Source: a virus
Taxonomy: Duplodnaviria > Heunggongvirae > Uroviricota > Caudoviricetes
Virus record (IMG/VR): IMGVR_UViG_3300037424_001372
Coordinates: 32,001-96,000 of that record
DNA: 64,000 nucleotides
Direction: 5' to 3' (one strand)
Shown: positions 1-24,482 of the stretch, one piece after another
Layout of the letters: each line of letters starts with the position of its first letter
How positions within the stretch are numbered: position 1 is the stretch's first letter
Position numbers and translations under genes: made by a program
Notes under the pieces: generated by a model
Database searches by the model: none
Told to the model about the DNA's origin: nothing
What the model saw: only the letters and a program-made list of their open reading frames with translations

Positions 1-445
<445 letters not shown>

Positions 446-515
446 GTTATTAACTTTTAACAAAAGTAATGTTTGATAATTAATTTATCGAGATTTTTAA
501 AAAATTTATAAATTG

Positions 516-587
516 CACGCCTGAGAGGACTCGAACCCCTAACGTCTGGTTTTGGAGACCAGCATTCTACCATTGAATTACAGACGT
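516..587 (-). tRNA. tRNA-Trp(CCA)
   Basis: Cloverleaf; anticodon arm CTGGT-CTCCAAA-ACCAG; T-loop TTCGAGT. Confidence 0.93.
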
Positions 588-592
588 ATATG

Positions 593-667
593 TAGCACAC
601 ATGGGATTCGAACCCATACCTGTATAGTTTTTGAAACTACTCCCTCTACCCGTTGGGGCACTGTGCT
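593..667 (-). tRNA. tRNA-Leu(CAA), short variable region
   Basis: GTAGT-TTCAAAA-ACTAT; T-arm ATGGG-TTCGAAT-CCCAT; A73. Confidence 0.85.
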
Positions 668-670
668 ATA

Positions 671-1456
671 TTAATTATATTTATTATTCCAATTTTCAAT
701 TCTAATTAATAATTCTTCTAAAGTTATTGAACATCTGAAATTTTTACTAATGTTATCATTATGAATCATTAATCTACAATTTGCAGGATGATTAATTATA
801 TCTGAACTAATACCATTTTCAAAACCAAATTTTATTGAAATCATATGGTCACGACTAATACCATTTAAATTATCGCCTCTATTTTTAGCTTTATACTAAC
901 CATATTTTTCAACTAATGTAAAATCGAATTCATTTGGATAATCAGCTAAATTAAATTTACATTCATTATAATATTTCTGATATTCATTAATATTTTTACT
1001 ATCATAAATTCGTTTACAATCTAAAGAACAAAAAACCCGTTTTCGATTCTTATAATTTAATACAGCATTACAATGTTTACAATAATTAGGCGATAAACCA
1101 TATTTGTACATATTTTCTTTAATATTTAACCTTTTTATTATTGCATCATTAATATTTTTTTTAGCTATATCGCTAAAATTTCTTTTACTATTAACTCTAA
1201 TACTATTATTAAATATTGCAGAACATGATTTTGAACAAAATTTTGCATTTTTTTCTGAAGAATAGAAAATATTATTACATTGTGAACAATATTTAGCATT
1301 TTTTTTCTTAAATTCATTATTACATTTTATCGAACAAAAATGTTTTCTTCCTAACTTTTCAGAACGATTATATTCACTCAATGTTTTTTCAAATTCTTTA
1401 TCACAATTTTCACAAGAAATTATAATTAATTTTCTATTATCTTTCCAACTATTCAT
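671..1456 (-). pseudogene. Zn-finger/HNH-like homing endonuclease with in-frame TAG at 896-898
   Basis: CxxC-rich N-terminus; frame continues past EKYG* as YKAKNRGDNLNGISRDHMISIKFGF...HPANCRLM to TAA at 671. Confidence 0.75.
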
Positions 1457-1529
1457 ATTTATAATTTACTATAAATACGTAAATATTTGAAAAATGTGGA
1501 ATACTTCGAATTCGAACTTGTATTATTAG

Positions 1530-1603
1530 TGGAGTCGATGGAGTATGATTCCACAACCTTCTGCTTGCAAAGCAGATGCTCTATCCATTTGAGCTACGAC
1601 CCC
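1530..1603 (-). tRNA. tRNA-Ala(UGC), atypical T-loop
   Basis: GGGGTCG/CGACTCC acceptor with G3:U70; TCTGC-TTTGCAA-GCAGA; T-loop ATCATAC. Confidence 0.85.
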
Positions 1604-1612
1604 ATGTTATTG

Positions 1613-1699
1613 TATCTTAGGTCGGATTCGAACCGACACGGGCATTCCTGCCCAAGGGATTTTAAGTCCCTCATGTGCTACCAATTTCATCACTAAGAC
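1613..1699 (-). tRNA. tRNA-Leu(UAA), long variable arm
   Basis: AGGGA-CTTAAAA-TCCCT; variable arm GGGCA-GGAA-TGCCC. Confidence 0.92.
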
Positions 1700-1705
1700 A
1701 TTTAG

Positions 1706-1780
1706 TACGAGTGGTGGGAGTCGAACCCACAAATTTCAGTTTCTAAGACTGTTGCCTCTTAACCGTTCGGCTACACTCGC
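1706..1780 (-). tRNA. tRNA-Leu(UAG), short variable region
   Basis: CAGT-CTTAGAA-ACTG; T-arm GTGGG-TTCGACT-CCCAC. Confidence 0.88.
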
Positions 1781-2214
1781 ATTTCTTTTTCAAGTATTGA
1801 ATGACAATTAGAACAAACAATAATTAAATTATTAAATTCATTATTAAAATGATTTCCATCAATATGATGTAGTTCGATTGGTATTTCTTGTCCTAACCAA
1901 GTATCATTACCACATTTTTCACATTTATGTTTTTTATAACCATCCCTAATTAATTTTAATTTTAATTTATGTGAACTAACATTACTTCCATTATAACAAT
2001 ATTCAAGAGCATTTTTTTTATTAAATGTTCTACCTTTATTAAAAGCACTACCTACAAAATGTGTAAATGAAATATTAAAATCAATTGCTCTTTTTTTTAT
2101 ATGAGTTTGTGAACCTGTCATTGGTTTAACTCCCAATATTCTACAAACATCAGCCCATGTTGTCGAACATTTAATAGCATTTTCTAATTGCTCATTAGTA
2201 TATTTATTTCTCAT
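1771..2214 (-). CDS. HNH homing endonuclease
   Basis: CEKC...IELHHIDGNHFNNEFNNLIIVCSNCH; likely start MRNKY at 2214; stop overlaps 5' end of tRNA-Leu(UAG). Confidence 0.85.
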   Translation of the reverse strand: MRNKYTNEQLENAIKCSTTWADVCRILGVKPMTGSQTHIKKRAIDFNISFTHFVGSAFNKGRTFNKKNALEYCYNGSNVSSHKLKLKLIRDGYKKHKCEKCGNDTWLGQEIPIELHHIDGNHFNNEFNNLIIVCSNCHSILEKEMRV

Positions 2215-2297
2215 TAGTATATATGTTTTTATATAAATAGTAATGTGTATACTAAAAAGATTAAATTTCAATATAATTACACAATATTATAATTAAG

Positions 2298-2371
2298 TAC
2301 CCCTAATCAGATTCGAACTGATACATTATACGGTCTTAACGTATTGCCTCTGCCAATTGGACTATAGGGGC
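2298..2371 (-). tRNA. tRNA-Leu(AAG), short variable region
   Basis: ATACG-TTAAGAC-CGTAT; acceptor GCCCCTA/TAGGGGT; A73. Confidence 0.85.
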
Positions 2372-2385
2372 GTATTATAAATTAG

Positions 2386-2475
2386 CATGAGCAGGGGGAT
2401 TCGAACCTAATTGCTATAGTCATCCCATTTTTCCTCTCGGACGAGGAACGTCTTACCACGTTAGACGATGCCCAT
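2386..2475 (-). ncRNA. tRNA-like RNA / pseudo-tRNA with 8-nt anticodon loop and T-stem insertion
   Basis: Acceptor ATGGGCA/TGCTCAT; D-arm GTCT..AGAC; TTCCT-CGTCCGAG-AGGAA; GGG[16 nt]GG-TTCGAAT-CCCCC. Confidence 0.6.
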
Positions 2476-2482
2476 ATTTTAG

Positions 2483-2557
2483 TGCTTTCTATTGGAGTCG
2501 AACCAATGACTTCCACATTGTAAGAGCGACACTCTAAACCAACTGAGTTAAGAAAGC
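2483..2557 (-). tRNA. tRNA-Val(UAC)
   Basis: Loop CTTACAA; acceptor GCTTTCT/AGAAAGC; weak anticodon stem. Confidence 0.8.
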
Positions 2558-2566
2558 AAATAATAG

Positions 2567-2639
2567 TACATCTGATAGGACTCGAACCTATGGTGTCTTG
2601 TTTGTAATACAAGTGCTTTTGCCACTAAGCTACAGATGC
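2567..2639 (-). tRNA. tRNA-Val(UAC)
   Basis: CTTGT-ATTACAA-ACAAG. Confidence 0.88.
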
Positions 2640-2642
2640 ATG

Positions 2643-2706
2643 TAGGGTGGTGTAGTAGCGAACATCACCACCCTAGATAGCCGAAGCTATAACGGTCCTA
2701 AACCGT
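2643..2706 (-). ncRNA. Candidate three-hairpin small RNA inside the tRNA operon
   Basis: ACGGT/ACCGT, ATAGC-TTCG-GCTAT and a perfect 10-bp TAGGGTGGTG/CACCACCCTA stem in tandem. Confidence 0.55.
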
Positions 2707-2709
2707 ATG

Positions 2710-2781
2710 TATTCGGACGGGGAATCGAACCCCGATTTTTGGGATGAAAACCCAACTTCCTTGCCGTTAGAAGACCCGAAC
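2710..2781 (-). tRNA. tRNA-Glu(UUC)
   Basis: TTGGG-TTTTCAT-CCCAA. Confidence 0.9.
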
Positions 2782-2784
2782 ATA

Positions 2785-3558
2785 TTATTTTTCATATCTA
2801 AATTTCCAACTTCTAATTGTATTATCACTGACCTTATATTTATAACCAGCACCTCGATATCCCAATTCACTAATATCTTTAATTAATTGCTCATAAGATG
2901 GTTTAATTTGATTTTTTACAAATCTACCTAACTTCCATCCATTATTTAAATATACATTTAAATCAATTTTATTTATTTTTTTATCTAATTCATTTTTAAA
3001 TACCCAACAAGTACCAAATTGTGAATTATTTTCTTTAATTCCTCTACCACGATGAGATATACTCATTTTATTTTTAGATTCATCAGTATGTTTTTTATTG
3101 GTGAATGTATTATATTTTAATACACCATCAATATGCATTTTTTTAAATCTATTACTTGCTCTTTTTTTATGATTTTCAATAAAATTAGGGTCTAACCAAA
3201 GTTTATTTAAAAAATTTGTTGAACCTTCTCTAATTTTTTTAATAGATTCTTCACACAACCCATTAAGACCACCTTCACCACCCAATTTCAAATTCATACA
3301 CATTGGGTCTTTTAATGTATTTTCATTAACCAATTCCTTTTCAGCCTCTTTTAATAATTTTCGTGATTCAAAATATTTAAGAATTTCAAATATGTGATTT
3401 TCTTTACCATATTTATTTATTGAATACCACAATCTTTTTCCACTTCCATAATAACCATCATTAATATTATTAGTACTATGCATGCCATAATAATAACGAT
3501 TATTTATATTATTAGTTATTTTATATAAATAATTAAATTTTCTTTCACTTCTTGCCTT
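2785..3558 (-). CDS. GIY-YIG (Seg-like) homing endonuclease with NUMOD3-like motif; start codon apparently ATG>AAG
   Basis: In-frame upstream extension KARSERKFNYLYKITNNINNRYYYGMHST...GYYGSG carries the GIY-YIG motif before the first ATG (3483). Confidence 0.8.
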   Translation of the reverse strand, partial: KARSERKFNYLYKITNNINNRYYYGMHSTNNINDGYYGSGKRLWYSINKYGKENHIFEILKYFESRKLLKEAEKELVNENTLKDPMCMNLKLGGEGGLNGLCEESIKKIREGSTNFLNKLWLDPNFIENHKKRASNRFKKMHIDGVLKYNTFTNKKHTDESKNKMSISHRGRGIKENNSQFGTCWVFKNELDKKINKIDLNVYLNNGWKLGRFVKNQIKPSYEQLIKDISELGYRGAGYKYKVSDNTIRSWKFRYEK

Positions 3559-3603
3559 CTTAATATTTTTTATAAATACTAAGATGGTACAAAAAGTTCA
3601 AGG

Positions 3604-3678
3604 TAGTGCCAACGGGGTTCGAACCCGCACATGACCAGTTTGAAGGACTGGTGACTTAACCAGTTTGCCAATAGCACC
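3604..3678 (-). tRNA. tRNA-Glu(UUC) with C33
   Basis: CCAGT-CCTTCAA-ACTGG. Confidence 0.82.
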
Positions 3679-3680
3679 AT

Positions 3681-4277
3681 TTATATTGTTTTTAAATTAA
3701 TGAAAAGTTCATAACCTAAAACATTTAAAATTTTAATTAAATTATTAATAGTAACATTTGATTTATTTAATTCAATTGTTTTTATTGTTCGTAAACTAAC
3801 TTCTGAAATATTAGATAGTTGTTGTTGTGTAATATTTAATATTTTACGTCTTCTTTTTATTAAAGAACCAATATCAGATTCATTTCCAAATTTCATTAAT
3901 GAATTATTTAATTGTTCCATTAATATTTTTTCTCTATATTCTATTTGTTGTTTTAATTTTTCATTATAATTATTCAAATTATTATTATATGAATCAGTAA
4001 TTAAGTAATTAAATAAATCATGATTATCATTTAATAATTTTCCAACCCAATATTTTTCTTTATCAACTAATTGTGTCCAATCAGAAACATTTTCTAATAC
4101 AATAACAGTTGGTGTATAATCATTCATTTTAAGTTCATTAATCCAATCATTTACTAATGGATTGTGTGAATGTGTTAAATGTGATTCAGCTCTTTTAACT
4201 CCGTTAATAGATTTACCAACATATTTAAATTCATCTGTTCTAGGGTCTTTTAAACCATAAATAATATTTTCATTCAT
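3681..4277 (-). CDS. GIY-YIG nuclease fused to a C-terminal XRE/HipB-like HTH
   Basis: IIYGLKDPRTDEFKYVGKS...R; IKRRRKILNITQQQLSNISEVSLRTIKTIE. Confidence 0.8.
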   Translation of the reverse strand: MNENIIYGLKDPRTDEFKYVGKSINGVKRAESHLTHSHNPLVNDWINELKMNDYTPTVIVLENVSDWTQLVDKEKYWVGKLLNDNHDLFNYLITDSYNNNLNNYNEKLKQQIEYREKILMEQLNNSLMKFGNESDIGSLIKRRRKILNITQQQLSNISEVSLRTIKTIELNKSNVTINNLIKILNVLGYELFINLKTI

Positions 4278-4312
4278 AAACATTTTTAACATAAATACTA
4301 ATAATGTTTATT

Positions 4313-4454
4313 AAAAGTGCTATATAATATACGATTTTTTTTTTATTTAAATGACGAACTATTATTTTACTGTTAAAACAGTATTTTAATTTTTATTATA
4401 ACTAAATAATATAATATATTGCACTTTTACTTAAAAATTACTGGTTTAGCAGTA
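4313..4454. promoter_or_regulatory. Candidate operator array
   Basis: Imperfect inverted pair AAAAGTGCTATATAAT (4313) / ATAATATATTGCACTTTT (4411); two TACTG-N6-CAGTA palindromes (4368, 4439). Confidence 0.45.
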
Positions 4455-4461
4455 ATTTTAG

Positions 4462-4534
4462 CACTCCCGATGGGACTCGAACCCACATAACCCGCATAGA
4501 CAGTGCGGTCGGCAACCTTTGCCACCACAGGGGT
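4462..4534 (-). tRNA. tRNA-Asp(GUC)
   Basis: CCGCA-CTGTCTA-TGCGG; G73. Confidence 0.82.
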
Positions 4535-4549
4535 GTTTAATAACTAGGG

Positions 4550-4621
4550 CGGTCTATGCGAGACTCGAACTCGCTTCTCATGGCTGACAACCACAAAGGA
4601 TAACCCATACCCTAATAGACC
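4550..4621 (-). tRNA. tRNA-Asp(GUC)
   Basis: GTGG-TTGTCAG-CCAT; acceptor GGTCTAT/ATAGACC; G73. Confidence 0.87.
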
Positions 4622-4629
4622 AATTTTCC

Positions 4630-4645
4630 CAATATGTCAAAGAAC
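4630..4645 (-). promoter_or_regulatory. boxA-like antitermination element
   Basis: GTTCTTTGACATATTG between terminator and first tRNA; resembles rrn boxA. Confidence 0.65.
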
Positions 4646-4656
4646 GTAACTTCTAT

Positions 4657-4699
4657 AAAAAAAAAGAACCCGACTCGTTTTAGTTAGTCGGGTTCTTTT
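4657..4699 (-). terminator. Intrinsic terminator (attenuator) of tRNA operon 1
   Basis: AAAAGAACCCGACT-10 nt loop-AGTCGGGTTC followed by T9. Confidence 0.88.
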
Positions 4700-4720
4700 A
4701 TTATAAAAGAAAGGAGTGTG

Positions 4721-4831
4721 TTATTTCACATTACCCGACAAAGTATAGTAATCCTCGTCTGCCCATAAAAGAGCATCTACCACTAACATGGCTTCAAGGA
4801 CTAATGATAATATGTCTAGTAATTTTTTCAT
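4721..4831 (-). CDS. Leader peptide 1, 36 aa (MKKLLDILSLVLEAMLVVDALLWADEDYYTLSGNVK)
   Basis: ATG..TAA ORF between promoter and terminator; contains GTCGGGT complementary to terminator 5' arm. Confidence 0.8.
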   Translation of the reverse strand: MKKLLDILSLVLEAMLVVDALLWADEDYYTLSGNVK

Positions 4832-4874
4832 CTTGATTTTATTTAAATCTGTTTGTTTCTATCTAAATACGTAG

Positions 4875-4905
4875 CAAAGTTATAAAATGTTACAACAACT
4901 GCAAA
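4875..4905 (-). promoter_or_regulatory. Bacteroidota-type housekeeping promoter
   Basis: TTTG-19 nt-TAACTTTG matches the -33 TTTG / -7 TAnnTTTG consensus. Confidence 0.75.
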
Positions 4906-4912
4906 CTTTTTT

Positions 4913-5335
4913 TCAAATATTTTTATCTTTTTTTATTGTTGGTGTTATAACTATCTGATAATCATTAATTTCATATGTTTTAAATAATGACATAATGTTC
5001 ATAGTTCCGTATGGATTCATTGAATGTACCATGATATTTGTGGGTACGTCTAATTTATTATCCATACAATAATCAATAAGCCATTTAGCACAATGATAAC
5101 CAGTTTTTTCATATGTTTCATCATTGTAATCGAAATTTTGCTTTTTATAATGTATATCAGCAAGGTCATGGTCAAATGAAATAATATTTGGTAAACCTTT
5201 GCTTTGAATAATATTAATGAATGCAAAATAATTTCGTACTATATGCCATTTTTCATCCATATATATTGGAAGATGCATATACTTGAAAGCATCTTTAGGC
5301 ATTCTGTAATCGTCAAGAAATGGATTATAGCTCAT
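4913..5335 (-). CDS. Cyclic-phosphate-processing receiver-like domain protein
   Basis: FLDDYR, ISFDHDL, TGYHCAKWL and VHSMN motifs. Confidence 0.7.
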   Translation of the reverse strand: MSYNPFLDDYRMPKDAFKYMHLPIYMDEKWHIVRNYFAFINIIQSKGLPNIISFDHDLADIHYKKQNFDYNDETYEKTGYHCAKWLIDYCMDNKLDVPTNIMVHSMNPYGTMNIMSLFKTYEINDYQIVITPTIKKDKNI

Positions 5336-5470
5336 TATTATCTTTTTTAATTATTATTTTATCAACATTTCTACGAACTTTAGAAGTATATTTTTTACCT
5401 CTTTTTTTCATATGTGTACACCATTCACCATTAAGGAACGAATTTTCTTTATGTCCAACTCTTAATTTGC

Positions 5471-5704
5471 TTATAACATGATTTTATTATCTCTAGCAAA
5501 AACTTGAATATAATGTTTCAAATTTTTAATCATTTCTTCTTTAGTGAGATTTTCATCAACATCTTTTAATGATGAATAAATTTCTCGAAGAAATTCAATT
5601 AATTCTGTTTGTTTATTATAATTCAATTCAAATTGTAAATCAATTAATTTTGATTTTAAATCTTCATTTTCTTCTTGAAGTTTATCAATTAATTCTTCCG
5701 ACAT
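5471..5704 (-). CDS. Hypothetical coiled-coil protein
   Basis: 77-aa ORF with heptad-like N-terminus. Confidence 0.6.
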   Translation of the reverse strand: MSEELIDKLQEENEDLKSKLIDLQFELNYNKQTELIEFLREIYSSLKDVDENLTKEEMIKNLKHYIQVFARDNKIML

Positions 5705-5799
5705 GATTTATAATTTTTAGATGATACGTTATTTATTGAAAAATGTTTCAATTATTATTGAATTTTTCTATAAATACTTTAATTAAAAGTAATTGAGTG

Positions 5800-5882
5800 T
5801 TGTCCCCACAGGATTCGAACCTGTAAACCCTAATGGGTGTCTGCTTCAAAGACAGATGCAATAACCATTCTGCCAGAGGACA
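5800..5882 (-). tRNA. tRNA-Gln(UUG) with long variable arm
   Basis: TCTGT-CTTTGAA-GCAGA; variable hairpin ACCC-ATTA-GGGT; U1-A72. Confidence 0.85.
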
Positions 5883-5934
5883 ATTTTAAATTTTGCAATT
5901 TTAATTGAAATATAATCATTATCGCAAAATATAG

Positions 5935-6008
5935 CAGTCTCGGTAGGATTCGAACCTACATTCTTCTGATTCAGAGTCAGGGGCGTTAGCCAATTGCGCT
6001 ACGAGACT
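5935..6008 (-). tRNA. tRNA-Gln(CUG)
   Basis: CTGA-CTCTGAA-TCAG. Confidence 0.88.
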
Positions 6009-6013
6009 ATATA

Positions 6014-6132
6014 CCTTTTATGACTAGACTTTTACTAGCAATTGAGTGTATCAGAACACTACCCTCGTCCCACATTGTTTACAGTTCTCTAAGTGAACCA
6101 CGAGTGACTTCTTATATCATCCACATAAAAGG
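6014..6132 (-). ncRNA. Candidate ~120-nt structured RNA inside tRNA operon 2
   Basis: 9-bp closing stem CCTTTTATG/CATAAAAGG with internal stems CTCGT/ACGAG, GTTC/GAAC, AGTGT/ACACT. Confidence 0.5.
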
Positions 6133-6138
6133 ATTTAG

Positions 6139-6214
6139 GGTGAAAGACGGGACTCGAACCCGCAAATTCCTGATTCACAGTCAGGCAAGTCTAACCAATT
6201 CCTTTACAATCACC
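6139..6214 (-). tRNA. tRNA-His(GUG)
   Basis: CCTGA-CTGTGAA-TCAGG; G-1 and C73. Confidence 0.87.
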
Positions 6215-6224
6215 ATTTAAATAG

Positions 6225-6299
6225 TCGGGATGGCAGGATTCGAACCTGCGAGTTCTCTTGCTTCCAATGCAAGCGGGGTGACCTCTCCCCAACATCCCG
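6225..6299 (-). tRNA. tRNA-Pro(UGG)
   Basis: CGGGATG/CATCCCG; CTTGC-ATTGGAA-GCAAG. Confidence 0.9.
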
Positions 6300-6331
6300 A
6301 AATATTGTCCCTAATATACATATTTGAGACA

Positions 6332-6408
6332 TGGGGTGAACGATGGGACTCGAACCCACAACTATCAGAACCACAATCTGACGTTCTACCAATTGAACTA
6401 CGTCCACC
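6332..6408 (-). tRNA. tRNA-His(GUG), CCA encoded
   Basis: TCAGA-TTGTGGT-TCTGA; G-1, C73, CCA. Confidence 0.93.
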
Positions 6409-6426
6409 ATTTGTTATAAAACCAAC

Positions 6427-6439
6427 TTTTCAAAGAACA
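6427..6439 (-). promoter_or_regulatory. boxA-like antitermination element
   Basis: TGTTCTTTGAAAA. Confidence 0.6.
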
Positions 6440-6447
6440 TTATTTTG

Positions 6448-6543
6448 TCAGGAATGTGGGATTCGAACCCACGGATGACAACGCCTTTGTGTCATCGCTG
6501 GTTTCCAAGACCAGCAGCTTAAACATTACTCGACCGCTTCCTG
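6448..6543 (-). tRNA. tRNA-Pro(UGG) with long variable arm
   Basis: CTGGT-CTTGGAA-ACCAG; 7-bp variable stem GATGACA/TGTCATC; C1-G72, A73. Confidence 0.8.
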
Positions 6544-6553
6544 TTATTTGTTG

Positions 6554-6629
6554 TAGGGATGACGAGGCTCGAACTCGCATAATTCCCGCTTCCAATGCGG
6601 GTCGTCTCCCAATTGACTTCACCACTCTA
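6554..6629 (-). tRNA. tRNA-Pro(UGG), imperfect acceptor stem
   Basis: CCCGC-ATTGGAA-GCGGG; T-arm GCGAG-TTCGAGC-CTCGT. Confidence 0.75.
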
Positions 6630-6638
6630 TATTTTTTG

Positions 6639-6709
6639 TTGTCCTCAGAGGATTCGGACCTCTACGCCAACAGTCAAAGTGTTGTGTGCTACCATTACAC
6701 TAGAGGACA
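6639..6709 (-). tRNA. tRNA-Gln(UUG)
   Basis: TGTCCTC/GAGGACA; CAACA-CTTTGAC-TGTTG. Confidence 0.88.
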
Positions 6710-6711
6710 AT

Positions 6712-6743
6712 AAAAAACCCACTCTTTTCAGAATGGGTTTTTT
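6712..6743 (-). terminator. Intrinsic terminator (attenuator) of tRNA operon 2
   Basis: AAAAAACCCATTC-TGAAAA-GAGTGGGTTTTTT ending 2 nt before tRNA-Gln. Confidence 0.85.
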
Positions 6744-6764
6744 ATTGTTTTTCAAGTGAGGTAT

Positions 6765-6893
6765 TTATCCCCAAGATTCTTCATGATTAACAATAGGATT
6801 CCCATTCACCATCCTTTGTGGATGTTGTGGTTGTTGGGGCTGATGCATTACTACTATTTCCATTGTTTCTTTTTTTAAAAATCGTTTCTTCAT
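6765..6893 (-). CDS. Leader peptide 2, 42 aa (MKKRFLKKETMEIVVMHQPQQPQHPQRMVNGNPIVNHEESWG)
   Basis: ATG..TAA ORF between promoter and terminator; GAATGGG complementary to terminator 5' arm. Confidence 0.85.
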   Translation of the reverse strand: MKKRFLKKETMEIVVMHQPQQPQHPQRMVNGNPIVNHEESWG

Positions 6894-6941
6894 TTTTTAA
6901 GTTTTAGATAAATTTATTACCCTTGACTTATAAATACGATG

Positions 6942-6972
6942 CAAATATACTAATTGCTATCATAATAGCAAA
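6942..6972 (-). promoter_or_regulatory. Bacteroidota-type housekeeping promoter
   Basis: TTTG-19 nt-TATATTTG. Confidence 0.75.
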
Positions 6973-15718: not shown

Positions 15719-18661
15719 ATGAGCGATGAATTTGATTTAGAATTAGATAATACATCAAAAGAAAAGGGATTTGATATAAATCCTAATTTGAATGATGAGA
15801 GTGATAAATTTCCAGACCACGTTCCTTTAGTTCCAATAGATACGCAAAGAGAAAAAGAAAAAGAAGAAACTCGTAAATTAGCAAAAAAACTTCGCAATAA
15901 AAGTGGTAATGCTGAACCTATTATTATTACTAAGGCAGGTGTAATAAAAAAAGCTAGTGAATTAACTGTATTTGAACAAGAAGATGAAATTGTTCAATGT
16001 GTTACAGACCCAATATATTTTATTGAGACTTATTTAACAATATTTGACCAAACTCAAGGTATTGCCGGTATGATAGTGCCTTTTAAGCTATTTGATTATC
16101 AAAAAGATTTAATAAGAACATATTTAGATGAAAGATTTGTTGTGGCCAACAAATATCGTCAGGCAGGTATTTCAACCACCACATGTGCATATATCGCTTG
16201 GTATGTAATGTTTAACAAAAACAGACAAGTTGCAATTGTAGCAGATAAACTTGAAACTGCTATGGGTGAGTTAATGTCGGATGTTGTTGATTTTATTGAA
16301 AGTTGTCCCAAATGGTTAAAACCTAAAACAGGTAAAGCAAGTGAAAAGAATTTAAAAGATACTCAAAAACTAAAAATCTACGATAATGAATCTAAATTAG
16401 GTGCATTTGCATCAAAATCATTACGTGGTTATACACCTACGTTATTATTTTGGGATGAGACAGCTTGGGCTGAAAAAGGAGATAAATTCTGGACAGCAGC
16501 ATTACCCTCTCTAGTAACTGGAGGTAGGGCAATTATGGTTTCTTGTGTTACTAAAGATACTTACATATATACTAATAAAGGCATTAAACAAATTAAAGAT
16601 TTTATTCCAAATGAAGCATTGGGTGCATATATAATCGATGAATATGAAATATTGGGTAAAGATAAATTAAGGAAAGGAACGTTATTTTTTAATAATGGTT
16701 ATGTCGATACATTGAAAATTAAAACAACTTTTTCTGAGTTGGAATCTAGTTATAACCATAAATATTGGGCATATAAAACAAGCGAAAACAAATATGGTAT
16801 ATATAAAACAAATGAACTGGAAGTTGGTGATTATATATCAATACAATATGGGATGAATATTTGGGGTAATAATGATAGTTGTTCGGATTTTAAACCTACG
16901 ATAACACATCATAATAGAAATATTTTTAACACAACAAAAATAACCAAAGATATTGCATATCTTATCGGTTTATATATTTCAGAAGGTTCTGCAATAAAAA
17001 AAAGTAAAAAAAATTATGATTATTATGGTATTACAATTACATGTGGTGACAATATTTCAGGAATATTGAATGCCTTAAATCTTAATTATTCTTGTACAGA
17101 TTCATTACATTATGTAATATCATCATTAAACTTAGTAGAATATTTAAAATATTTGGGATTTGATTTATCAAAAAAAGCACCACAAAAAATAATACCGCCA
17201 AGATTATTCGAAATGAGCCGAGACAATATTATTGCAATGATTCAAGGCATAATGGATGGTGATGGTTGGGTTAGTTATAAAAAAACAAATAAATTATCCG
17301 TTGGCATTGGGCTATCATCAAAAGAACTAATTCAACAATTAAGGATATTATTTGGAAATTTTGGAATATTGACTTATTATAACGAATCATTAACATCACC
17401 AACAAAAATAGTTAATGTTAGTTCTAATAAATATACTATTGAAGCATCGAATTCATATGCATTAAAATATTTTGATGAAATCGGTTTTAGGTTCAATAGA
17501 AAACAGATAAAAAAAGATTTATTTAATATTAATAAATTAAAACATTTGGGTGTTGTCGATAATATACCAAATGGGAAAGAAATCGCATATAAAATTTATA
17601 ATGAAATAAAAAAATATGGTAAATTACAAGAATTAAAAACACATGATATAAAAATTGATGGCTGGATCAGTAGAAAAAAACAAAAATCTAATTCATGTTC
17701 AAGAAAAATGTTATTAAATTTTTTTAATTTAGAAAAAAATAATTTATCGAATAATATACTAAACGAAATAAATCCAATATTATCTAATAATCAATATTGG
17801 ACAAAAATTAAATTAATTGAACGATCTAAGAATTATACATATGATTTTTCATTACCAAATGAACCTGAAGAACCAAATGATTTTCATCATTCTGTAATAT
17901 ATAATCAAATAATTGGCTACCAAACACCATCAGGTCTTGATGCTGTATTCTACAAAACATTTGATGGAGCAAAAAATAAAAAAAATGAAAATAATTTCTA
18001 TGCGGTTGAACTTTGGTGGTATAATGATCCTCGATATAATAAAAATCTATACTGGGTAAAAAACAAAAATAGGGAAAATGAAATTAGAATCGAGGATAAT
18101 GGTCGAACTAAGGAACAACGAATGCAATTGGTTGAAGATGGGTGGGTAGCATCAAATGAATGGTTCGAATCACAAATTAGAAACGCAAATGGTGATATGC
18201 GTAAGGTTGCACAAGAATTATTGTGTGTTTATGGTGATGCATTGTTGACTATAAGAAATAAATCTACAATGAAAATTGAATTTATTTCTATTAGAGATTT
18301 ATATAATAAATTAAAAGAACAAAATAATTCTTCAAAGTTTTTATATGAAAATAAATCAATAAATAAAATGAAATTATTAAATAAAATACTTGCAATTAAT
18401 ATTGAAAAATATAAAACTAGTAGGGCAACATCTATATTTAAAAAAGACTATCCTGAATTAATTAAATTAGTTAATCATCACACCATTGATATGCAGATTT
18501 GTCGGTCAAATAAGATAATGTATGCAAAATTATTGTTTTTAAAAAAATATTATGGTAATATTAACAACATTATTATTAATAATAATGTTATGATATTTAA
18601 TAATAAGACTAGTGATTTTATTGAAAAAGCAAGTAATGCAACAAAAAACATCAATATTTAA
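15719..18661 (+). CDS. terL: Terminase large subunit, N-terminal (ATPase) part, with one cis intein and the N-half of a split intein
   Basis: ANKYRQAGIST Walker A, LFWDETAW Walker B, IMVS|intein|TPSG, VAQELL|CVYGD. Confidence 0.92.
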   Translation: MSDEFDLELDNTSKEKGFDINPNLNDESDKFPDHVPLVPIDTQREKEKEETRKLAKKLRNKSGNAEPIIITKAGVIKKASELTVFEQEDEIVQCVTDPIYFIETYLTIFDQTQGIAGMIVPFKLFDYQKDLIRTYLDERFVVANKYRQAGISTTTCAYIAWYVMFNKNRQVAIVADKLETAMGELMSDVVDFIESCPKWLKPKTGKASEKNLKDTQKLKIYDNESKLGAFASKSLRGYTPTLLFWDETAWAEKGDKFWTAALPSLVTGGRAIMVSCVTKDTYIYTNKGIKQIKDFIPNEALGAYIIDEYEILGKDKLRKGTLFFNNGYVDTLKIKTTFSELESSYNHKYWAYKTSENKYGIYKTNELEVGDYISIQYGMNIWGNNDSCSDFKPTITHHNRNIFNTTKITKDIAYLIGLYISEGSAIKKSKKNYDYYGITITCGDNISGILNALNLNYSCTDSLHYVISSLNLVEYLKYLGFDLSKKAPQKIIPPRLFEMSRDNIIAMIQGIMDGDGWVSYKKTNKLSVGIGLSSKELIQQLRILFGNFGILTYYNESLTSPTKIVNVSSNKYTIEASNSYALKYFDEIGFRFNRKQIKKDLFNINKLKHLGVVDNIPNGKEIAYKIYNEIKKYGKLQELKTHDIKIDGWISRKKQKSNSCSRKMLLNFFNLEKNNLSNNILNEINPILSNNQYWTKIKLIERSKNYTYDFSLPNEPEEPNDFHHSVIYNQIIGYQTPSGLDAVFYKTFDGAKNKKNENNFYAVELWWYNDPRYNKNLYWVKNKNRENEIRIEDNGRTKEQRMQLVEDGWVASNEWFESQIRNANGDMRKVAQELLCVYGDALLTIRNKSTMKIEFISIRDLYNKLKEQNNSSKFLYENKSINKMKLLNKILAINIEKYKTSRATSIFKKDYPELIKLVNHHTIDMQICRSNKIMYAKLLFLKKYYGNINNIIINNNVMIFNNKTSDFIEKASNATKNINI
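16544..17923 (+). mobile_element. Intein with LAGLIDADG endonuclease, ends in Gln
   Basis: CVTKDT...YLIGLYISEG...IQGIMDGDG...IIGYQ|T; removal restores the S-T-P-x-G motif. Confidence 0.88.
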
Positions 18662-20084: not shown

Positions 20085-23000
20085 ATGGCAAACGAAAATA
20101 ATAGTAAGAATACTATATATCAAGAACTAAATAAGTTGTTAAATCTTGATGGCTTTGGGTTTCAGGAATCAAATGCGACAATACATTCTCAAATTCCTGA
20201 AGAATCTAAAATAATTATTAAAGGTAATTCACCAGAAGAAATACATAGAAAAGGACTTGAAATTGAACAAAAAAATAAAATTAAAAACAAGTTCTTTAGA
20301 ACCACTGATAGAAGTTTTCAAAAAGCACTTCAATATGAAGCAGCAAGACTTCCGGCATATATGGATTATGAGGGAATGGAATATTATCCTATCATTTCAT
20401 CCGCTTTAGATTTATTTATGGAGGAAGCAACTACAATAGGTATTAATGGTAAAATGTTAAATGTTCATTCAAACAAAGAAAGAATAAAAACATTATTAGA
20501 AGATTTTTTTTATAATACTGTAAATGTTAATGTTAATCTGCCATTTTGGACGAGGAACGTGGTAAAATATGGTGATGATTTTGTATTATTATACGGTGAA
20601 AGAAAAAAAGGGATTACACATGTCAAACAATTGGTAAATTATGAAATTGAACGTTTTGAACGTATTCAAAATGGTAAATCAATAGTCAAGTTTAAAGAAA
20701 GAATGACTGGTGATGAATTTAATGTTTTTGAAATAGCGCATTTTCGTTTGCTTGGCGATGACAAATATTTACCATATGGAAGTTGTTTATTATCAGATAC
20801 TTATGTAAAAACAAATAAAGGAACCAAACAAATTAAAAATATTGTAAAAGATGATATTGTAATTGGATTTGATATTAAGACACAGAAAAAAATTGAGACA
20901 ACAGTATTAGACACAATTAAAAGTGGTAAAAAGGAAGTATTTAAAATATCAACAAAACATAATTATATAGATTCCTCTAAAGAACATAAATTTTTAATAT
21001 ATGATGATAATATTAATAATTTTAGGTATGAATTTGTTGAAAATTTAAAAATTGGTGATAAATTAATAATTAATGATTCTGATAAGAATGACACAATAAA
21101 AAATATTAATAAAGAAGAAAAGGTTACTATTGATAGATTAAAAAGAAAGTTTCGTTATTATCAAAATATTGATAATATTCCTAATACTATAACAACTGAG
21201 TTCGCCCAATTTATTGGATTTATGTTTGGGGATGGATGGATATCACATAATAAAGACATATCATTTGCACTTGGTGAATATGAAACACAAAATTTAAAAT
21301 ATATAAATTTATTAGAAAAATTTTCTGGTGTTAAACCCAAACTAATTAAACCCAATATTAAAGTTAATTACAATTATTCACAAGTAAATGTTGGTTCTAA
21401 AATGCTGGCAACAATATTGATTGAATTGGGTTTTCATGGTAAGTTTAATGAAAAAAGAATACCTGATTGGATTTTTGATTCGCCTAAAGAAATTAGAGAG
21501 GCATTTTTAGATGGATTTGTTGATGCGGATGGGTCAATATTTATTGATAAATGGGATTGTGTGAGATATTCGATTGAATTGGGAAATAATGAACTTATAA
21601 AAGATTTAAAATATTTGGTTCAATCATTGGGATATAAATCTGGAAAAATTTCTACCAGAAAAAGAATCGATGATAAATTTATTAAAGGAAGAAAAATCAA
21701 TTCAAACACATCACACTATTTTTATTTTTTCAAAACAATAAATAAACAAATAAAAAAGTATGATGTAAATAATAGATTTTCAAATGAATTTATTGTTGAA
21801 CCAATAATTTCAATTGAAAATATTGGAGTACATGATGTTTACGATATACACGTTGATAATGAAAATCATAATTTTTTCGCCAATAATATCGTTGTCCATA
21901 ATTCTGTATTAAATAAAGTTCGTAGAGTTTTCAGACAATTAATAATGGCTGAAGATGCTATGTTAACATATAGAATCATTCGTGCCGGTGAGAAAAAAGT
22001 GTTTAAAATTGATGTGGGTAATATTGATGAGGATGATATTGAAGAATATATTTATAAAGTAGCGACTACATTTAAAAAAGTAAGTCAAGTAAATCCTAAT
22101 GATGGTCAAATTGATTATCGTTTTAATATTTTAGGTAATGATGAAGATTATTTTATACCAGTAAGAAATGCAAATACTCAAACAGGTATTGATACCTTAC
22201 CGGGTGCATGTTTATCTTTAGAAACTAAAATTGAATTACTTGATGGTCGTAGTTTAGAATTAAGCGAAATTATCACAGAATTTAATTCAGGAAAGGAACT
22301 TTGGTCATATTCGATTAATCCTAAATCAGGGCAAATCGTTCCGGGTAAGATTACTTGGGCAGGTGTGACTAGAAAAAATACTGATGTAATTAAAATTACA
22401 TTAGATAATGGAGAATCAATTATATGTACACCTGACCATAAATTCCCAACTAAATTTAATGGTACTAAAGAAGCCAAAGATTTAATTGTTGGTGAATCTA
22501 TGTGGGCTTTTAATAAAAAGAAAAGTATTATAAAGGGCGGTAGTGGAATTGATAATACATATGAAATGATTTACGATCATTCAACGAATGATTGGAGATA
22601 TACTCATAGAATGGTGGCACATTACTTGAAAGAAAATGATTTATGTGAAGTTTTTGCATATAAAATATATGATAATAACATGCAAACAATTCATCATAAA
22701 GATTTTAACAGATATAATAATAGTCCACAGAATATATGTTATATGAATTCTAAAGACCATTTTTACTATCATCACGATTTTGCTAAAGAAATGTATGAAA
22801 CATATTCAGACGAAACAAAATTAATTCATAAAAATCTTAGAAAAACTGGTGTTAAGAATTATTGGGATAATATTACAACTGAAGAATTGCAACAAAAAAA
22901 GGTTGTTGCTAAGAATAATTCGATAAAATCAAGAGATAAGGCGAATAAAACCTTTAATAATAATCCCAATAAAATTAATATTATTAAATTAAGGGGAGAA

Positions 23001-24482
23001 TCAATTAGCAAAATTAAATCACTTGACGATAATAAGACGAAACAATCAGAGATAGCTAAATCTCGATGGAAAAATACTAATTTAAGAGAAATTATTATTG
23101 AGAAACAATCGATAAAATATTCACAAAAATTATTAGATTTATTAATTGGTTATTATAATGAATATGGAAGAATTGATTTAATCCTTGAAAAGAATATTAA
23201 TGTCAATAATTCCGAATGGTTAAATGAATTTAAATCATTGAATTCAAATAATAAACAATTGAATAAAATGACTGAAATTACTCGCAATAACATTGATAAA
23301 ATGTTGAAATATTTCGGTTATTCTAATTGGAATGATTTTAAACATAAAATGCCTTATTATAATCACAAAATAAAGTTAATCGAGTGGTTAGATGAAAAAC
23401 AAAATACTGGTACAATTACTATTGATGGTCAAGAGGAACTACATGATTATCACACATTTGCACTTTCGTGTGGCATTTTTACAAAGAATTCTAATCTTGA
23501 CCAGATTCAAGATATTGAATATCTTCGTGATAATCTATTTATTGGACTTGGTGTGCCTAAACCATTTTTAAGTTTTCAAGATGCTGCTGGTGGTGGTAAA
23601 AACTTAGCACAATATGACATACGTTTTGCTAAAAAAATAAATCGTATTCAACAAGCTATGGTTCAGGAATTAAATAAAATGGCTATAATACATTTATATT
23701 TATTAGGTTATAGTGGTGAAGATTTAAATAGTTTTCAAATAACATTAACCAATCCAAGTACTCAACAAGAATTATTAAAATCTGAATTGTTGAGAGAGAA
23801 AGCACAAACGTATACCGAATTAACTCGTGGCGAAAATGGTATTGCTGCTATGTCACATACAGCAGCAAAGCGATTGGTTTTCAATATGAGTGATAAAGAA
23901 ATTGTTGAAGACTTGAAACAACAAAAAATGGAAAAAGTTGTTATGCAAGAACTTGCAGACTCACCAGTATCAATTAAAAAGAGTGGATTATTTACTGACA
24001 TAGATAAAAGATTTGGTGAGCCTATTGAAGGGATGGCGATTTCGAATGATAATGAAGGTGGAATACAGCCCACTGGAAGTAATGCTGGTTCTCCTATGGG
24101 AGGTGCACCTCAAGGTGATAAACTTGGCGGTACCAATACTTCTCCAATGGGAGGTGAAGCTGGTTCACCTGTGGGGAGTGTTCCACCTAGCGGTGAAATG
24201 GGGGGTACTCCTATGATGGAAAATAGAATGTTGAATAATAGTTATGATAGTCATGTTGAAAAATTAGTATATGGTGACGATAAAGAAATTGAATATGATA
24301 AAAATAAACAAAAAGAAATTATTCAAGAAAATAATCAGATTAATATTAATTTAAATAAAAATGCATTTGAAATGATTAATGAAATTGATCAACTATTAAA
24401 AAATTCTGAAACTATTAATAAAAAATATGGTTCGACTGAAAATGTTGAAGATATTGATTTTGATAATTTAGATGACATTTAA
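20085..24482 (+). CDS. Portal protein (T4 gp20-like) with two inteins
   Basis: AHFRL..PYG, EDAMLTYRIIRAGEKKVFKIDVGN, IDTLPG, DIRFAKKINRIQ. Confidence 0.93.
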   Translation: MANENNSKNTIYQELNKLLNLDGFGFQESNATIHSQIPEESKIIIKGNSPEEIHRKGLEIEQKNKIKNKFFRTTDRSFQKALQYEAARLPAYMDYEGMEYYPIISSALDLFMEEATTIGINGKMLNVHSNKERIKTLLEDFFYNTVNVNVNLPFWTRNVVKYGDDFVLLYGERKKGITHVKQLVNYEIERFERIQNGKSIVKFKERMTGDEFNVFEIAHFRLLGDDKYLPYGSCLLSDTYVKTNKGTKQIKNIVKDDIVIGFDIKTQKKIETTVLDTIKSGKKEVFKISTKHNYIDSSKEHKFLIYDDNINNFRYEFVENLKIGDKLIINDSDKNDTIKNINKEEKVTIDRLKRKFRYYQNIDNIPNTITTEFAQFIGFMFGDGWISHNKDISFALGEYETQNLKYINLLEKFSGVKPKLIKPNIKVNYNYSQVNVGSKMLATILIELGFHGKFNEKRIPDWIFDSPKEIREAFLDGFVDADGSIFIDKWDCVRYSIELGNNELIKDLKYLVQSLGYKSGKISTRKRIDDKFIKGRKINSNTSHYFYFFKTINKQIKKYDVNNRFSNEFIVEPIISIENIGVHDVYDIHVDNENHNFFANNIVVHNSVLNKVRRVFRQLIMAEDAMLTYRIIRAGEKKVFKIDVGNIDEDDIEEYIYKVATTFKKVSQVNPNDGQIDYRFNILGNDEDYFIPVRNANTQTGIDTLPGACLSLETKIELLDGRSLELSEIITEFNSGKELWSYSINPKSGQIVPGKITWAGVTRKNTDVIKITLDNGESIICTPDHKFPTKFNGTKEAKDLIVGESMWAFNKKKSIIKGGSGIDNTYEMIYDHSTNDWRYTHRMVAHYLKENDLCEVFAYKIYDNNMQTIHHKDFNRYNNSPQNICYMNSKDHFYYHHDFAKEMYETYSDETKLIHKNLRKTGVKNYWDNITTEELQQKKVVAKNNSIKSRDKANKTFNNNPNKINIIKLRGESISKIKSLDDNKTKQSEIAKSRWKNTNLREIIIEKQSIKYSQKLLDLLIGYYNEYGRIDLILEKNINVNNSEWLNEFKSLNSNNKQLNKMTEITRNNIDKMLKYFGYSNWNDFKHKMPYYNHKIKLIEWLDEKQNTGTITIDGQEELHDYHTFALSCGIFTKNSNLDQIQDIEYLRDNLFIGLGVPKPFLSFQDAAGGGKNLAQYDIRFAKKINRIQQAMVQELNKMAIIHLYLLGYSGEDLNSFQITLTNPSTQQELLKSELLREKAQTYTELTRGENGIAAMSHTAAKRLVFNMSDKEIVEDLKQQKMEKVVMQELADSPVSIKKSGLFTDIDKRFGEPIEGMAISNDNEGGIQPTGSNAGSPMGGAPQGDKLGGTNTSPMGGEAGSPVGSVPPSGEMGGTPMMENRMLNNSYDSHVEKLVYGDDKEIEYDKNKQKEIIQENNQININLNKNAFEMINEIDQLLKNSETINKKYGSTENVEDIDFDNLDDI
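20784..21902 (+). mobile_element. Intein with LAGLIDADG endonuclease in portal
   Basis: CLLSDT...FIGFMFGDG...FLDGFVDADG...VVHN|S. Confidence 0.9.
22209..23489 (+). mobile_element. Intein with HNH endonuclease in portal
   Basis: CLSLET...CTPDHKF...THRMVA...IHHKDFNRYNN...FTKN|S. Confidence 0.88.

Follow-up and report, generated by a model that had tools for sequence, protein, structure and literature searches.

The enterobacterial amino-acid attenuators include the trpL, hisL, pheL and leuL leaders as well as multivalent ones, namely thrL (Thr and Ile) and the ilvGMEDA leader (Ile, Leu and Val). In Escherichia coli, attenuation by the Phe-rich pheM leader also governs pheST, which encodes the phenylalanyl-transfer RNA (tRNA) synthetase. 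T-box riboswitches bind uncharged tRNA directly through a specifier codon and the T-box sequence, without translation. The tRNA sets of phages T4 and T5 and of huge phages have been suggested to compensate for a mismatch in codon usage or for the depletion of host tRNAs, and to our knowledge no demand-sensing transcriptional control has been described for these arrays. The present analysis concerns two tRNA arrays in a stretch of 64,000 nucleotides (nt), hereafter the window, which spans bases 32001-96000 of the virus record IMGVR_UViG_3300037424_001372, a single contig of 324,744 bp with a G+C content of 27.6%. Each array is preceded by a promoter, a short leader open reading frame (ORF) and an intrinsic terminator, and this arrangement probably represents ribosome-mediated attenuation of the trp/his type giving feedback control of the phage tRNA supply.

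The phage units, designated A1 and A2 in the window and A3 and A4 elsewhere in the genome, resemble the enterobacterial amino-acid attenuators in several respects. A promoter-proximal short ORF carries a run of putative sensing codons, the competing pairings 1:2, 2:3 and 3:4 are predicted, with the 3:4 terminator placed just before the genes, and one leader would sense several amino acids. The classical regulated genes are those of amino-acid biosynthesis or of synthetases; the genes downstream of the phage leaders are tRNA genes instead of genes for biosynthetic enzymes, and the product would therefore feed back directly on the sensing step. The phage units further differ by the number of amino acids per leader, which reaches nine, by the four units of a complete relative (G002) that together span tRNAs for all 20 amino acids, and by being phage-encoded, with a promoter of the Bacteroidota type and a boxA-like element downstream. 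The pheST/pheM system likewise places a leader-peptide attenuator on a decoding component for the amino acid sensed; it controls a cellular synthetase and responds to one amino acid, whereas whole tRNA sets lie behind the phage leaders. In T-box riboswitches, too, tRNA status chooses between terminator and antiterminator ahead of translation-related genes, while sensing in the phage units would be performed by a translated multi-codon ORF. Neither a specifier codon loop nor a T-box sequence was found, and no T-box match was obtained from Rfam with E-values up to 1 in the window region, nor at the gathering score in the loci L025 (this genome), L036 (the complete relative G001) and L037. Among the Rfam leader families, the best match was Thr_leader, located on the terminator hairpin and scoring 29.9 bits where the threshold is 55, and the other units gave none at threshold. 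The T4, T5 and huge-phage arrays share the large clustered repertoires with homing-endonuclease-like ORFs between the tRNA genes. Full-text literature searches found no leader-peptide attenuation of tRNA genes, in cells or in phages; the initial annotation of this DNA likewise knew of no attenuator-controlled phage tRNA arrays.

That annotation had described two minus-strand units, each made of a promoter, a leader ORF, a 7-nt segment complementary to the terminator, a U-tailed terminator and tRNA genes. All of these elements were found where it had placed them. Unit A1 (Pro/His/Gln) is composed as follows.

6942-6972, minus strand: promoter of the Bacteroidota sigma-A type (TTTG, 19 nt, TAtaTTTG), an exact pattern match
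6765-6893, minus strand: leader ORF of 42 codons, from the ORF list
6816-6845, minus strand: regulatory run HQPQQPQHPQ, ten consecutive His, Gln or Pro codons by codon count
6831-6838, minus strand: segment 1, CCCAACAA, inside the run, predicted to pair with segment 2 when the RNA is folded to just before the terminator
6801-6807, minus strand: segment 2, the antiterminator GAATGGG, fully complementary to the terminator 5' arm CCCATTC
6712-6743, minus strand: intrinsic terminator with A-tract, 5' arm CCCATTC, GAAA loop, 3' arm GAGTGGG (one G-U pair) and U-tract
5799-6709, minus strand: array of eight tRNA genes, only Gln, Pro and His, from ARAGORN, Rfam and alignment with relatives

Unit A2 (Asp/Glu/Val/Leu/Ala/Trp) follows the same layout.

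4875-4905, minus strand: promoter (TTTG, 19 nt, TAacTTTG), an exact pattern match
4721-4831, minus strand: leader ORF of 36 codons, from the ORF list
4751-4822, minus strand: regulatory run spanning codons 4-27, with 21 of the 24 specifying Leu, Asp, Val, Glu, Ala or Trp
4813-4821, minus strand: segment 1, TACTAGACA, codons 4-7, predicted to pair with segment 2 in the fold that stops just short of the terminator
4733-4739, minus strand: segment 2, the antiterminator GTCGGGT, complement of the terminator 5' arm (ACCCGAC)
4657-4699, minus strand: intrinsic terminator with 5' arm GAACCCGACT, 10-nt loop, 3' arm AGTCGGGTTC and nine U
4629-4645, minus strand: boxA-like element GTTCTTTGACAT-A-TTGG, 17 nt, between the terminator and the first tRNA gene
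515-4622, minus strand: array of twelve tRNA genes, Asp (two), Glu (two), Val (two), Leu-AAG, Leu-TAG, Leu-TAA, Ala, Leu-CAA and Trp

The terminator of A1 has a local folding energy of -14.9 kcal/mol and the first tRNA gene begins 3 nt beyond it; the corresponding values for A2 are -18.9 kcal/mol and 35 nt. No terminators were detected inside the A2 array (515-4622). A generic terminator scan missed the attenuator hairpins owing to its loop and stem limits. The promoter pattern TTTG-N19-TAnnTTTG has 3 matches in the 64 kb of the window and 20 in the 325-kb genome, and three of these precede the leaders of A1, A2 and A3. The exact Bacteroidota sigma-A pattern (TTTG at -33, TAnnTTTG at -7) lies 45-50 nt upstream of these three leaders and is also present in relatives, the A1 layout being kept upstream of the orthologous leaders. 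These elements are thus predicted to be Bacteroidota sigma-A promoters. A generic sigma-70 scan was uninformative, with 63 promoter-like sites against 56 expected.

Relatives were gathered by means of the neighbouring 626-amino-acid (aa) protein, which yielded 24 IMG/VR loci with 50-61% identity. The order of the tRNA genes is kept across these loci, and both the A1 and A2 leaders are present at each locus that reaches the arrays. A motif scan for A1 returned 38 IMG/VR contigs, so that the design is kept in at least this number, in which Pro, His and Gln tRNAs come next wherever the contig extends; their leaders have 18-25 codons, and the A2 orthologs 28-36 codons. Two complete relatives, G001 (348,923 bp) and G002 (362,763 bp), contain four units each. 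In both, A1 is followed by Pro/His/Gln tRNAs, A2 by Asp/Glu/Val/Leu/(Ala)/Trp and A3 by the group Thr/Cys/Asn/Ile/Ser/Phe/Gly/Arg, and in A4 the run YYYGKKSYKK precedes Lys, Tyr and Lys tRNAs. The A3 leader of G001 holds a 30-residue run made solely of amino acids of its array (Thr, Cys, Ile, Ser, Phe, Gly, Met, Asn and Arg). The full amino-acid complement of G002 is reached from A1 through the end of A3, with Met located between A2 and A4. The hairpins are GC-rich, carry 6-9 U and in most units stand 3-66 nt ahead of the first tRNA gene; an inserted ORF widens this gap to 150-940 nt in some relatives. The initial annotation had made its reading depend on conserved leaders and on a correspondence between leaders and tRNAs in homologous arrays. 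Both hold, and the correspondence extends to the Lys/Tyr and Thr/Cys/Asn/Ile/Ser/Phe/Gly/Arg units situated outside the window. As a side observation, a 42-codon Lys-rich ORF is located between the A1 terminator and the first tRNA gene at 14156-14284 of L002, with counterparts in L003-L005 and none in this genome; because of this position it would itself fall under attenuator control.

The genome from which the window originates also has two further units. A3 is located outside the window (about 4650-4930 of L025, minus strand), upstream in the genome, behind a promoter almost identical to that of A2. Codons for Thr, Ile, Ser, Asn, Gly and Cys abound in its 44-codon leader, which is followed by a terminator and by tRNAs Thr, Cys, Asn, Pro, Met, Ile, Ser, Gly, Met and Asn. 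A4 was recognized, by alignment with relatives, as a relic before a lone tRNA-Tyr gene at 28040-28470 of the genome (13040-13470 of L025, minus strand). About 200 nt are inserted in this relic, and a C-A mismatch affects the 3' arm of its terminator. Of the Lys/Tyr unit, only the tRNA-Tyr gene is left; none for tRNA-Lys was detected in this genome.

The correspondence between leader codons and array anticodons was quantified in these genomes. All leaders are enriched for the amino acids of their own arrays relative to the amino-acid usage of the phage (binomial P from 1e-2 to 1e-8), which agrees with the enrichment originally noted in the window: all ten codons of the A1 run and 21 of the 24 of the A2 run specify amino acids of the cognate array. 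At the codon level, with strict wobble rules, the enrichment matrix is diagonal in this genome, G001 and G002, and the cognate assignment of leaders to arrays ranks first among 6, 24 and 24 permutations, respectively. Most codons of the runs are readable by the anticodons of their own array under the same rules (9 of 10 in the A1 run, 20 of 35 over the whole A2 leader), and the A2 leader includes all four Leu isoacceptor codon types. Such windows are rare among the 1775 small ORFs of the genome: the best 10-codon window of A1 (9/10) is reached by one, which is A1 itself, that of A2 by two (A2 and one other) and that of A3 by 35. A proline-stalling arrest peptide was considered for A1 and rejected, the run having no consecutive prolines.

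Coding constraint was analysed on 22 distinct orthologous A1 leaders over 75 nt each. The amino acids of codons 9-15 (Pro-Gln-Pro-Gln-Gln-His-Pro) are kept in 21-22 of the 22 leaders, and their third positions vary, with all four Pro codons and both CAA and CAG for Gln in use. The flanking codons 17, 18 and 22-24 change non-synonymously. An in-frame deletion of 6 nt occurs in two leaders and the ATG is invariant. Codons 19-21 (GAA TGG GGA), which spell segment 2, are by comparison nucleotide-invariant in 22/22 leaders. The A2 orthologs behave differently from a conserved protein, as their peptide sequence drifts and the composition remains inside the amino-acid set of the array. Taken together, these patterns constitute indirect evidence that the leaders are translated. 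Synonymous-only change in the A1 run and drift of the A2 peptide point to sensing codons, unlike what would be seen for a functional peptide. In L014 and L020, the nucleotides of segment 2 persist though the frame ends before or within this segment, and segment 2 is for this reason considered an RNA element.

Complementarity between segment 2 and the 5' arm of the terminator is perfect throughout the four sequence classes; the 3' arm, by contrast, usually departs from perfect pairing by a single mismatch or G-U pair. The sequences are as follows.

A1, segment 2 against the terminator 5' arm: GAATGGGG against CCCCATTC
A2, segment 2 and arm: CAGTCGGG
A3 of G001, segment 2 and arm: GTGTCGGG
A3 of G002, segment 2 and arm: GATACGGGTT
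A4, segment 2 and arm: GAATCGGG

In L014, the three segments have all changed in a matched manner (GAACGGG / CCCCGTTC / GAACGGGG). In the A2 relatives, a 5' extension of segment 2 covaries with the arm, giving the pairs CAGTC/GACTG, GGAGTC/GACTCC and GTAGTC/GACTAC. Covariation was read by core-anchored extraction, as MAFFT misplaced one arm by one column in both L014 (3' arm) and L020 (5' arm). In the genome of the window, the 7-nt complementarity is reached by 23 of 500 dinucleotide shuffles for A1 and by 4 of 500 for A2, which is only modestly beyond chance; the weight of these complementarities comes from their conservation and covariation in relatives. The cognate duplexes of G001 and G002 are reached by 0-6 of 500 shuffles. 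When all segments are paired with all arms, each cognate duplex outranks the others of its row and column; the exceptions are A3 of this genome and A2 of G001, the latter being beaten within its column. The his/trp-type logic proposed in the initial annotation is supported by this covariation of antiterminator and terminator together with the synonymous-only change of the sensing run.

RNA folding in silico gave further indications of a switch. When the RNA is folded to just before the terminator, segment 2 is predicted to pair with the sensing run in A1, A2, A4 and A3 of G001, its partners being Pro/Gln codons in A1, Leu-Leu-Asp-Ile in A2 and Tyr-Gly-Lys-Lys in A4. A 1:2 pairing of the same kind is predicted for A1 in G001 and G002, and the N-terminal codons matching segment 1 of A2 are conserved at the nucleotide level in relatives. 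The 1:2 pairing was not seen in the pre-terminator folds of A3 from this genome or from G002. The ribosome was modelled as a 28-nt mask stepped along the leader, with the RNA ended before the 3' arm. In these truncated folds, a mask on the run leads the 5' arm to pair with segment 2, and no such pairing is obtained with the mask over segment 2. The ribosome-masked folding called for in the initial annotation thus reproduces the switch in truncated RNA; the outcome with the complete RNA is less favourable, as detailed below with the other points of this nature.

The boxA-like 17-mer is kept after the terminator in 10/10 A2 orthologs. A copy with 2 substitutions relative to that of A2 lies inside the A1 array of this genome (6422-6438, minus strand), and copies with 0-2 changes are also found early in A3. 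The exact 17-mer is present in at least 120 bacterial genome contigs; among the matches listed, 68 of 80 belong to Bacteroidota by title. In all six checked loci with a complete ribosomal RNA (rRNA) operon, it sits between tRNA-Ala and 23S in the 16S-23S spacer. The spacer boxA of E. coli rRNA operons lies between the spacer tRNA and 23S, and on this precedent the Bacteroidota spacer 17-mer is presumably a boxA. A literature search for the boxA sequence returned noise only. The phage element thus shares with the rRNA-operon boxA an identical 17-nt sequence, at the position corresponding to the E. coli element, and the property of preceding long untranslated RNA genes; it differs by being phage-borne, by sitting behind a putative attenuator and by presumably serving tRNA arrays. 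Its identity with the rRNA spacer element supports a Bacteroidota host. The element also supports a transcription that would enter the arrays from upstream via the attenuator, and by analogy suggests a Nus-type protection of the long untranslated arrays. A separate tRNA promoter is not expected, because the gaps of 3 and 35 nt between terminator and tRNA leave no room for one and because a boxA-like element would act only on polymerase arriving from upstream. In a separate context, G001 has a transfer-messenger RNA (tmRNA) gene in its tRNA region (8010-8372 of L036, Rfam 68.6 bits), and a boxA-like motif with 3 substitutions ends 4 nt upstream of this gene; no tmRNA gene was found in the genome of the window.

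What the analysis establishes is the anatomy of the units and how it is conserved, the match between codons and anticodons, the constraint on leader coding and the covariation of the competing pairings. Leader translation, ribosome stalling, read-through and Nus loading would then proceed as can be briefly summarized. Host RNA polymerase would initiate at the Bacteroidota-type promoter and a ribosome would start on the short leader. With plentiful aminoacyl-tRNAs, the ribosome would move on and segment 2 would be covered or re-paired with segment 1. Segment 2 being unavailable, the 3:4 terminator hairpin would form and transcription would end before the tRNA genes. With slow decoding, the ribosome would stall on the run and mask segment 1, and the 2:3 pairing would permit read-through into the tRNA genes. 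In long arrays, the polymerase would next meet the boxA-like element, probably loading host Nus antitermination factors of the rRNA type. Once the tRNAs are abundant and charged, the leader would again be read fast and transcription would stop. Each unit would therefore form a negative-feedback loop on one tRNA group, because its products read the sensing codons. The phage probably transcribes a tRNA block only when ribosomes decode the codons of that block slowly. Such a design would respond to any slow decoding of the run codons, and the cause could be a mismatch between the AT-rich phage and the host tRNAs, heavy late demand, starvation or the cleavage of tRNAs by defence nucleases, the latter being a possible trigger among several. 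A broader proposal is tentative and appears rather unlikely at present: the four units would together monitor the decoding pool through several channels, each of which would detect the loss of one host tRNA group, be it by codon-usage mismatch or by the action of host anticodon nucleases, and switch on phage replacements in the same transcript, with a hijacked rRNA-type boxA securing their transcription, so that the system would act both as a counter-defence sensor and as a supply regulator. Lys and Tyr tRNAs are targets of known anticodon nucleases, and the Lys/Tyr channel would fit these targets.

A number of observations weigh against attenuation as the mode of control. In equilibrium folds of the full RNA, the terminator prevails for A1, A2 and A4 wherever the ribosome is placed, because an A/U extension stabilises the hairpin, and the expected switch is obtained only for A3 of this genome and of G002. 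The switch of A1, A2 and A4 being obtained only in truncated folds, the model depends on co-transcriptional kinetics, as in trp. In several units the stop codon is 23-33 nt past segment 2 (33 nt in A1 of the window), and a terminating ribosome would not mask this segment; the model must therefore rely on the 1:2 pairing. Some Pro codons of A1-type runs (CCC) are unreadable by the anticodon TGG under strict wobble. The A3 leader of this genome retains Phe and Arg codons, yet tRNA genes for these two amino acids were not detected in the genome, and the A3 antiterminator is displaced onto the A-tract. The relic leader of A4 has its ATG changed to ATT, an early frame stop and a deleted antiterminator segment. 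The attenuator system is thus partly eroded in the genome of the window. The uncultured huge phage LR756508.1 (484 kb, 28 tRNAs), a distant relative with a tail-sheath match of about 29%, displayed no terminator-preceded arrays with the detector used, and huge phages thus do not all have the design. Finally, no RNA sequencing runs containing this DNA were listed, its sole full match being a sediment metagenome, possibly the one from which it originates.

Three other explanations were weighed. The attenuators might be real and report general translation capacity or the coupling of transcription and translation, such as any shortage of ribosomes or slow initiation, in place of specific tRNA pools, the codon composition being a historical by-product. 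A single architecture with an A-rich start region common to all units would suit such a general sensor, as would the termination by default in the equilibrium folds, since any translation failure could then alter the outcome. The four leaders have, however, different and non-overlapping runs, each matching its own array, and a general sensor needs neither the composition kept by A2 despite drift nor the exclusively synonymous change of the A1 run. In addition, an untranslated leader is predicted to form the 1:2 pairing and hence to terminate, not to read through. This explanation is considered improbable. It is also quite improbable that the elements act as RNA independently of translation, either as a processing or stability hairpin or as a switch governed by a protein or by a tRNA that binds it directly, with an incidental ORF. 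Segment 2 and the terminator are indeed conserved as nucleotides, including in L014 and L020, whose frames end before or inside segment 2. An incidental ORF would nevertheless be hard to reconcile with the invariant start codon, the synonymous third-position variation, the in-frame indels and the match of four different codon runs to four tRNA sets; no T-box or other riboswitch family match was obtained, and a U-tract follows every hairpin. In the third explanation, the leaders would simply encode small proteins and each gene would end in a terminator of its own; leaky read-through or promoters elsewhere would provide the tRNAs, and the match would arise by chance. This is very improbable, for although the A2 leader is hydrophobic and could pass as a membrane helix and L002, L004 and L005 have the further 42-codon ORF between the A1 terminator and the first tRNA, this genome has no room for a promoter in that interval, only 1 and 2 of the small ORFs reach the observed codon windows, the A2 orthologs retain composition and not sequence, the complement inside the ORF covaries with the terminator arm, and the unit that lost its Lys tRNAs also lost its leader.

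With attenuation retained as the preferred explanation, the content of the arrays can be examined further. The 19 tRNA genes predicted by ARAGORN in the window are all on the minus strand, within 515-6709, and Rfam adds one weak tRNA-like gene. The A1 array reads as follows in the order of transcription.

6638-6709, minus strand: tRNA Gln-TTG (ARAGORN)
6554-6626, minus strand: the weak tRNA-like gene, with anticodon loop TGG (Rfam 33 bits, no ARAGORN call); the counterpart in L015 reads CGG
6449-6541, minus strand: tRNA Pro-TGG with a long arm, 93 nt, assigned by anticodon
6332-6407, minus strand: tRNA His (ARAGORN)
6224-6299, minus strand: tRNA Pro (ARAGORN)
6138-6213, minus strand: tRNA His (ARAGORN)
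5934-6008, minus strand: tRNA Gln-CTG (ARAGORN)
5799-5882, minus strand: tRNA Gln-TTG with a long arm, 84 nt, assigned by anticodon

ARAGORN labels the last gene Phe(gaa). This label was rejected, as the gene has 81% mean identity to the Gln(ttg) tRNAs of relatives and its 7-nt anticodon loop gives TTG. The two tRNAs with long variable arms, 6449-6541 (Pro TGG) and 5799-5882 (Gln TTG), are conserved across the phage family, with orthologs in L001-L023. Long-arm tRNA bodies are usually those of Leu, Ser or Tyr tRNAs, and the charging identity of these two is therefore doubtful. An extra tRNA at 31329-31411 of the genome (16329-16411 of L025, minus strand) is detected by Rfam (40 bits), without an ARAGORN call.

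Four ORFs are interspersed among the A2 tRNA genes, and in two of them HNH-like Cys/His motifs were recognized by eye.

671-1456, minus strand: ORF, same strand as the tRNAs
1771-2271, minus strand: ORF, same strand as the tRNAs
2785-3483, minus strand: ORF, same strand as the tRNAs
3681-4292, minus strand: ORF, same strand as the tRNAs

The HNH-like ORF 671-1456 is interrupted by an in-frame TAG at 896-898, and an ATPase-like ORF at 2-463 (minus strand) by an in-frame TGA at 305-307. ORFs of at least 100 aa occupy 87% of the genome under code 11, so that the standard code fits; an alternative genetic code was rejected on this ground, the two in-frame stops near the arrays being local. No suppressor tRNA was found by ARAGORN in this genome, and G001 and G002 carry a tRNA with the anticodon CTA. 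Between the stop codon of the A2 leader and its terminator (4706-4718, minus strand), a conserved stretch resembles the 3' end of 16S rRNA. It reads CCTCCTTTCT in several relatives and CTCCTTTCTT in the window, and is without counterpart in L004 and L020, both of which have longer A2 leaders.

Genes for a large terminase, a portal, a head protease, a helicase and a tail sheath are also present in the window, and this set identifies a jumbo myovirus-type phage. The terminase (15719-18661, plus strand, 980 aa) and the portal (20085-24482, plus strand, 1465 aa) far exceed the lengths of their PHROG profiles, and the portal additionally matches endonuclease families, which suggests inteins or inserted homing endonucleases. 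A DNA similarity search of a phage collection for cultured phages gave tRNA matches only, and a search with the tail-sheath protein gave no relative above about 40% partial identity; there is therefore no cultured family member to work with.

The layout provides a simple annotation rule, in which a short ORF, a terminator and tRNA genes are found in succession and the codons of the ORF match the anticodons of the tRNAs. If the proposed control is true, the units would be ready sensors for defined aminoacyl-tRNA groups, and this would be the first leader-peptide control of tRNA genes found, with attenuation operating in Bacteroidota and in the phages that infect them. The supply of tRNAs would be under a direct feedback loop made from a classical attenuator, and a direct way of testing the response of a phage to tRNA depletion by host defences would become available. 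Phage tRNA genes are usually seen as passive codon-bias cargo; in this phage family, their transcription appears to be set by the speed of decoding.

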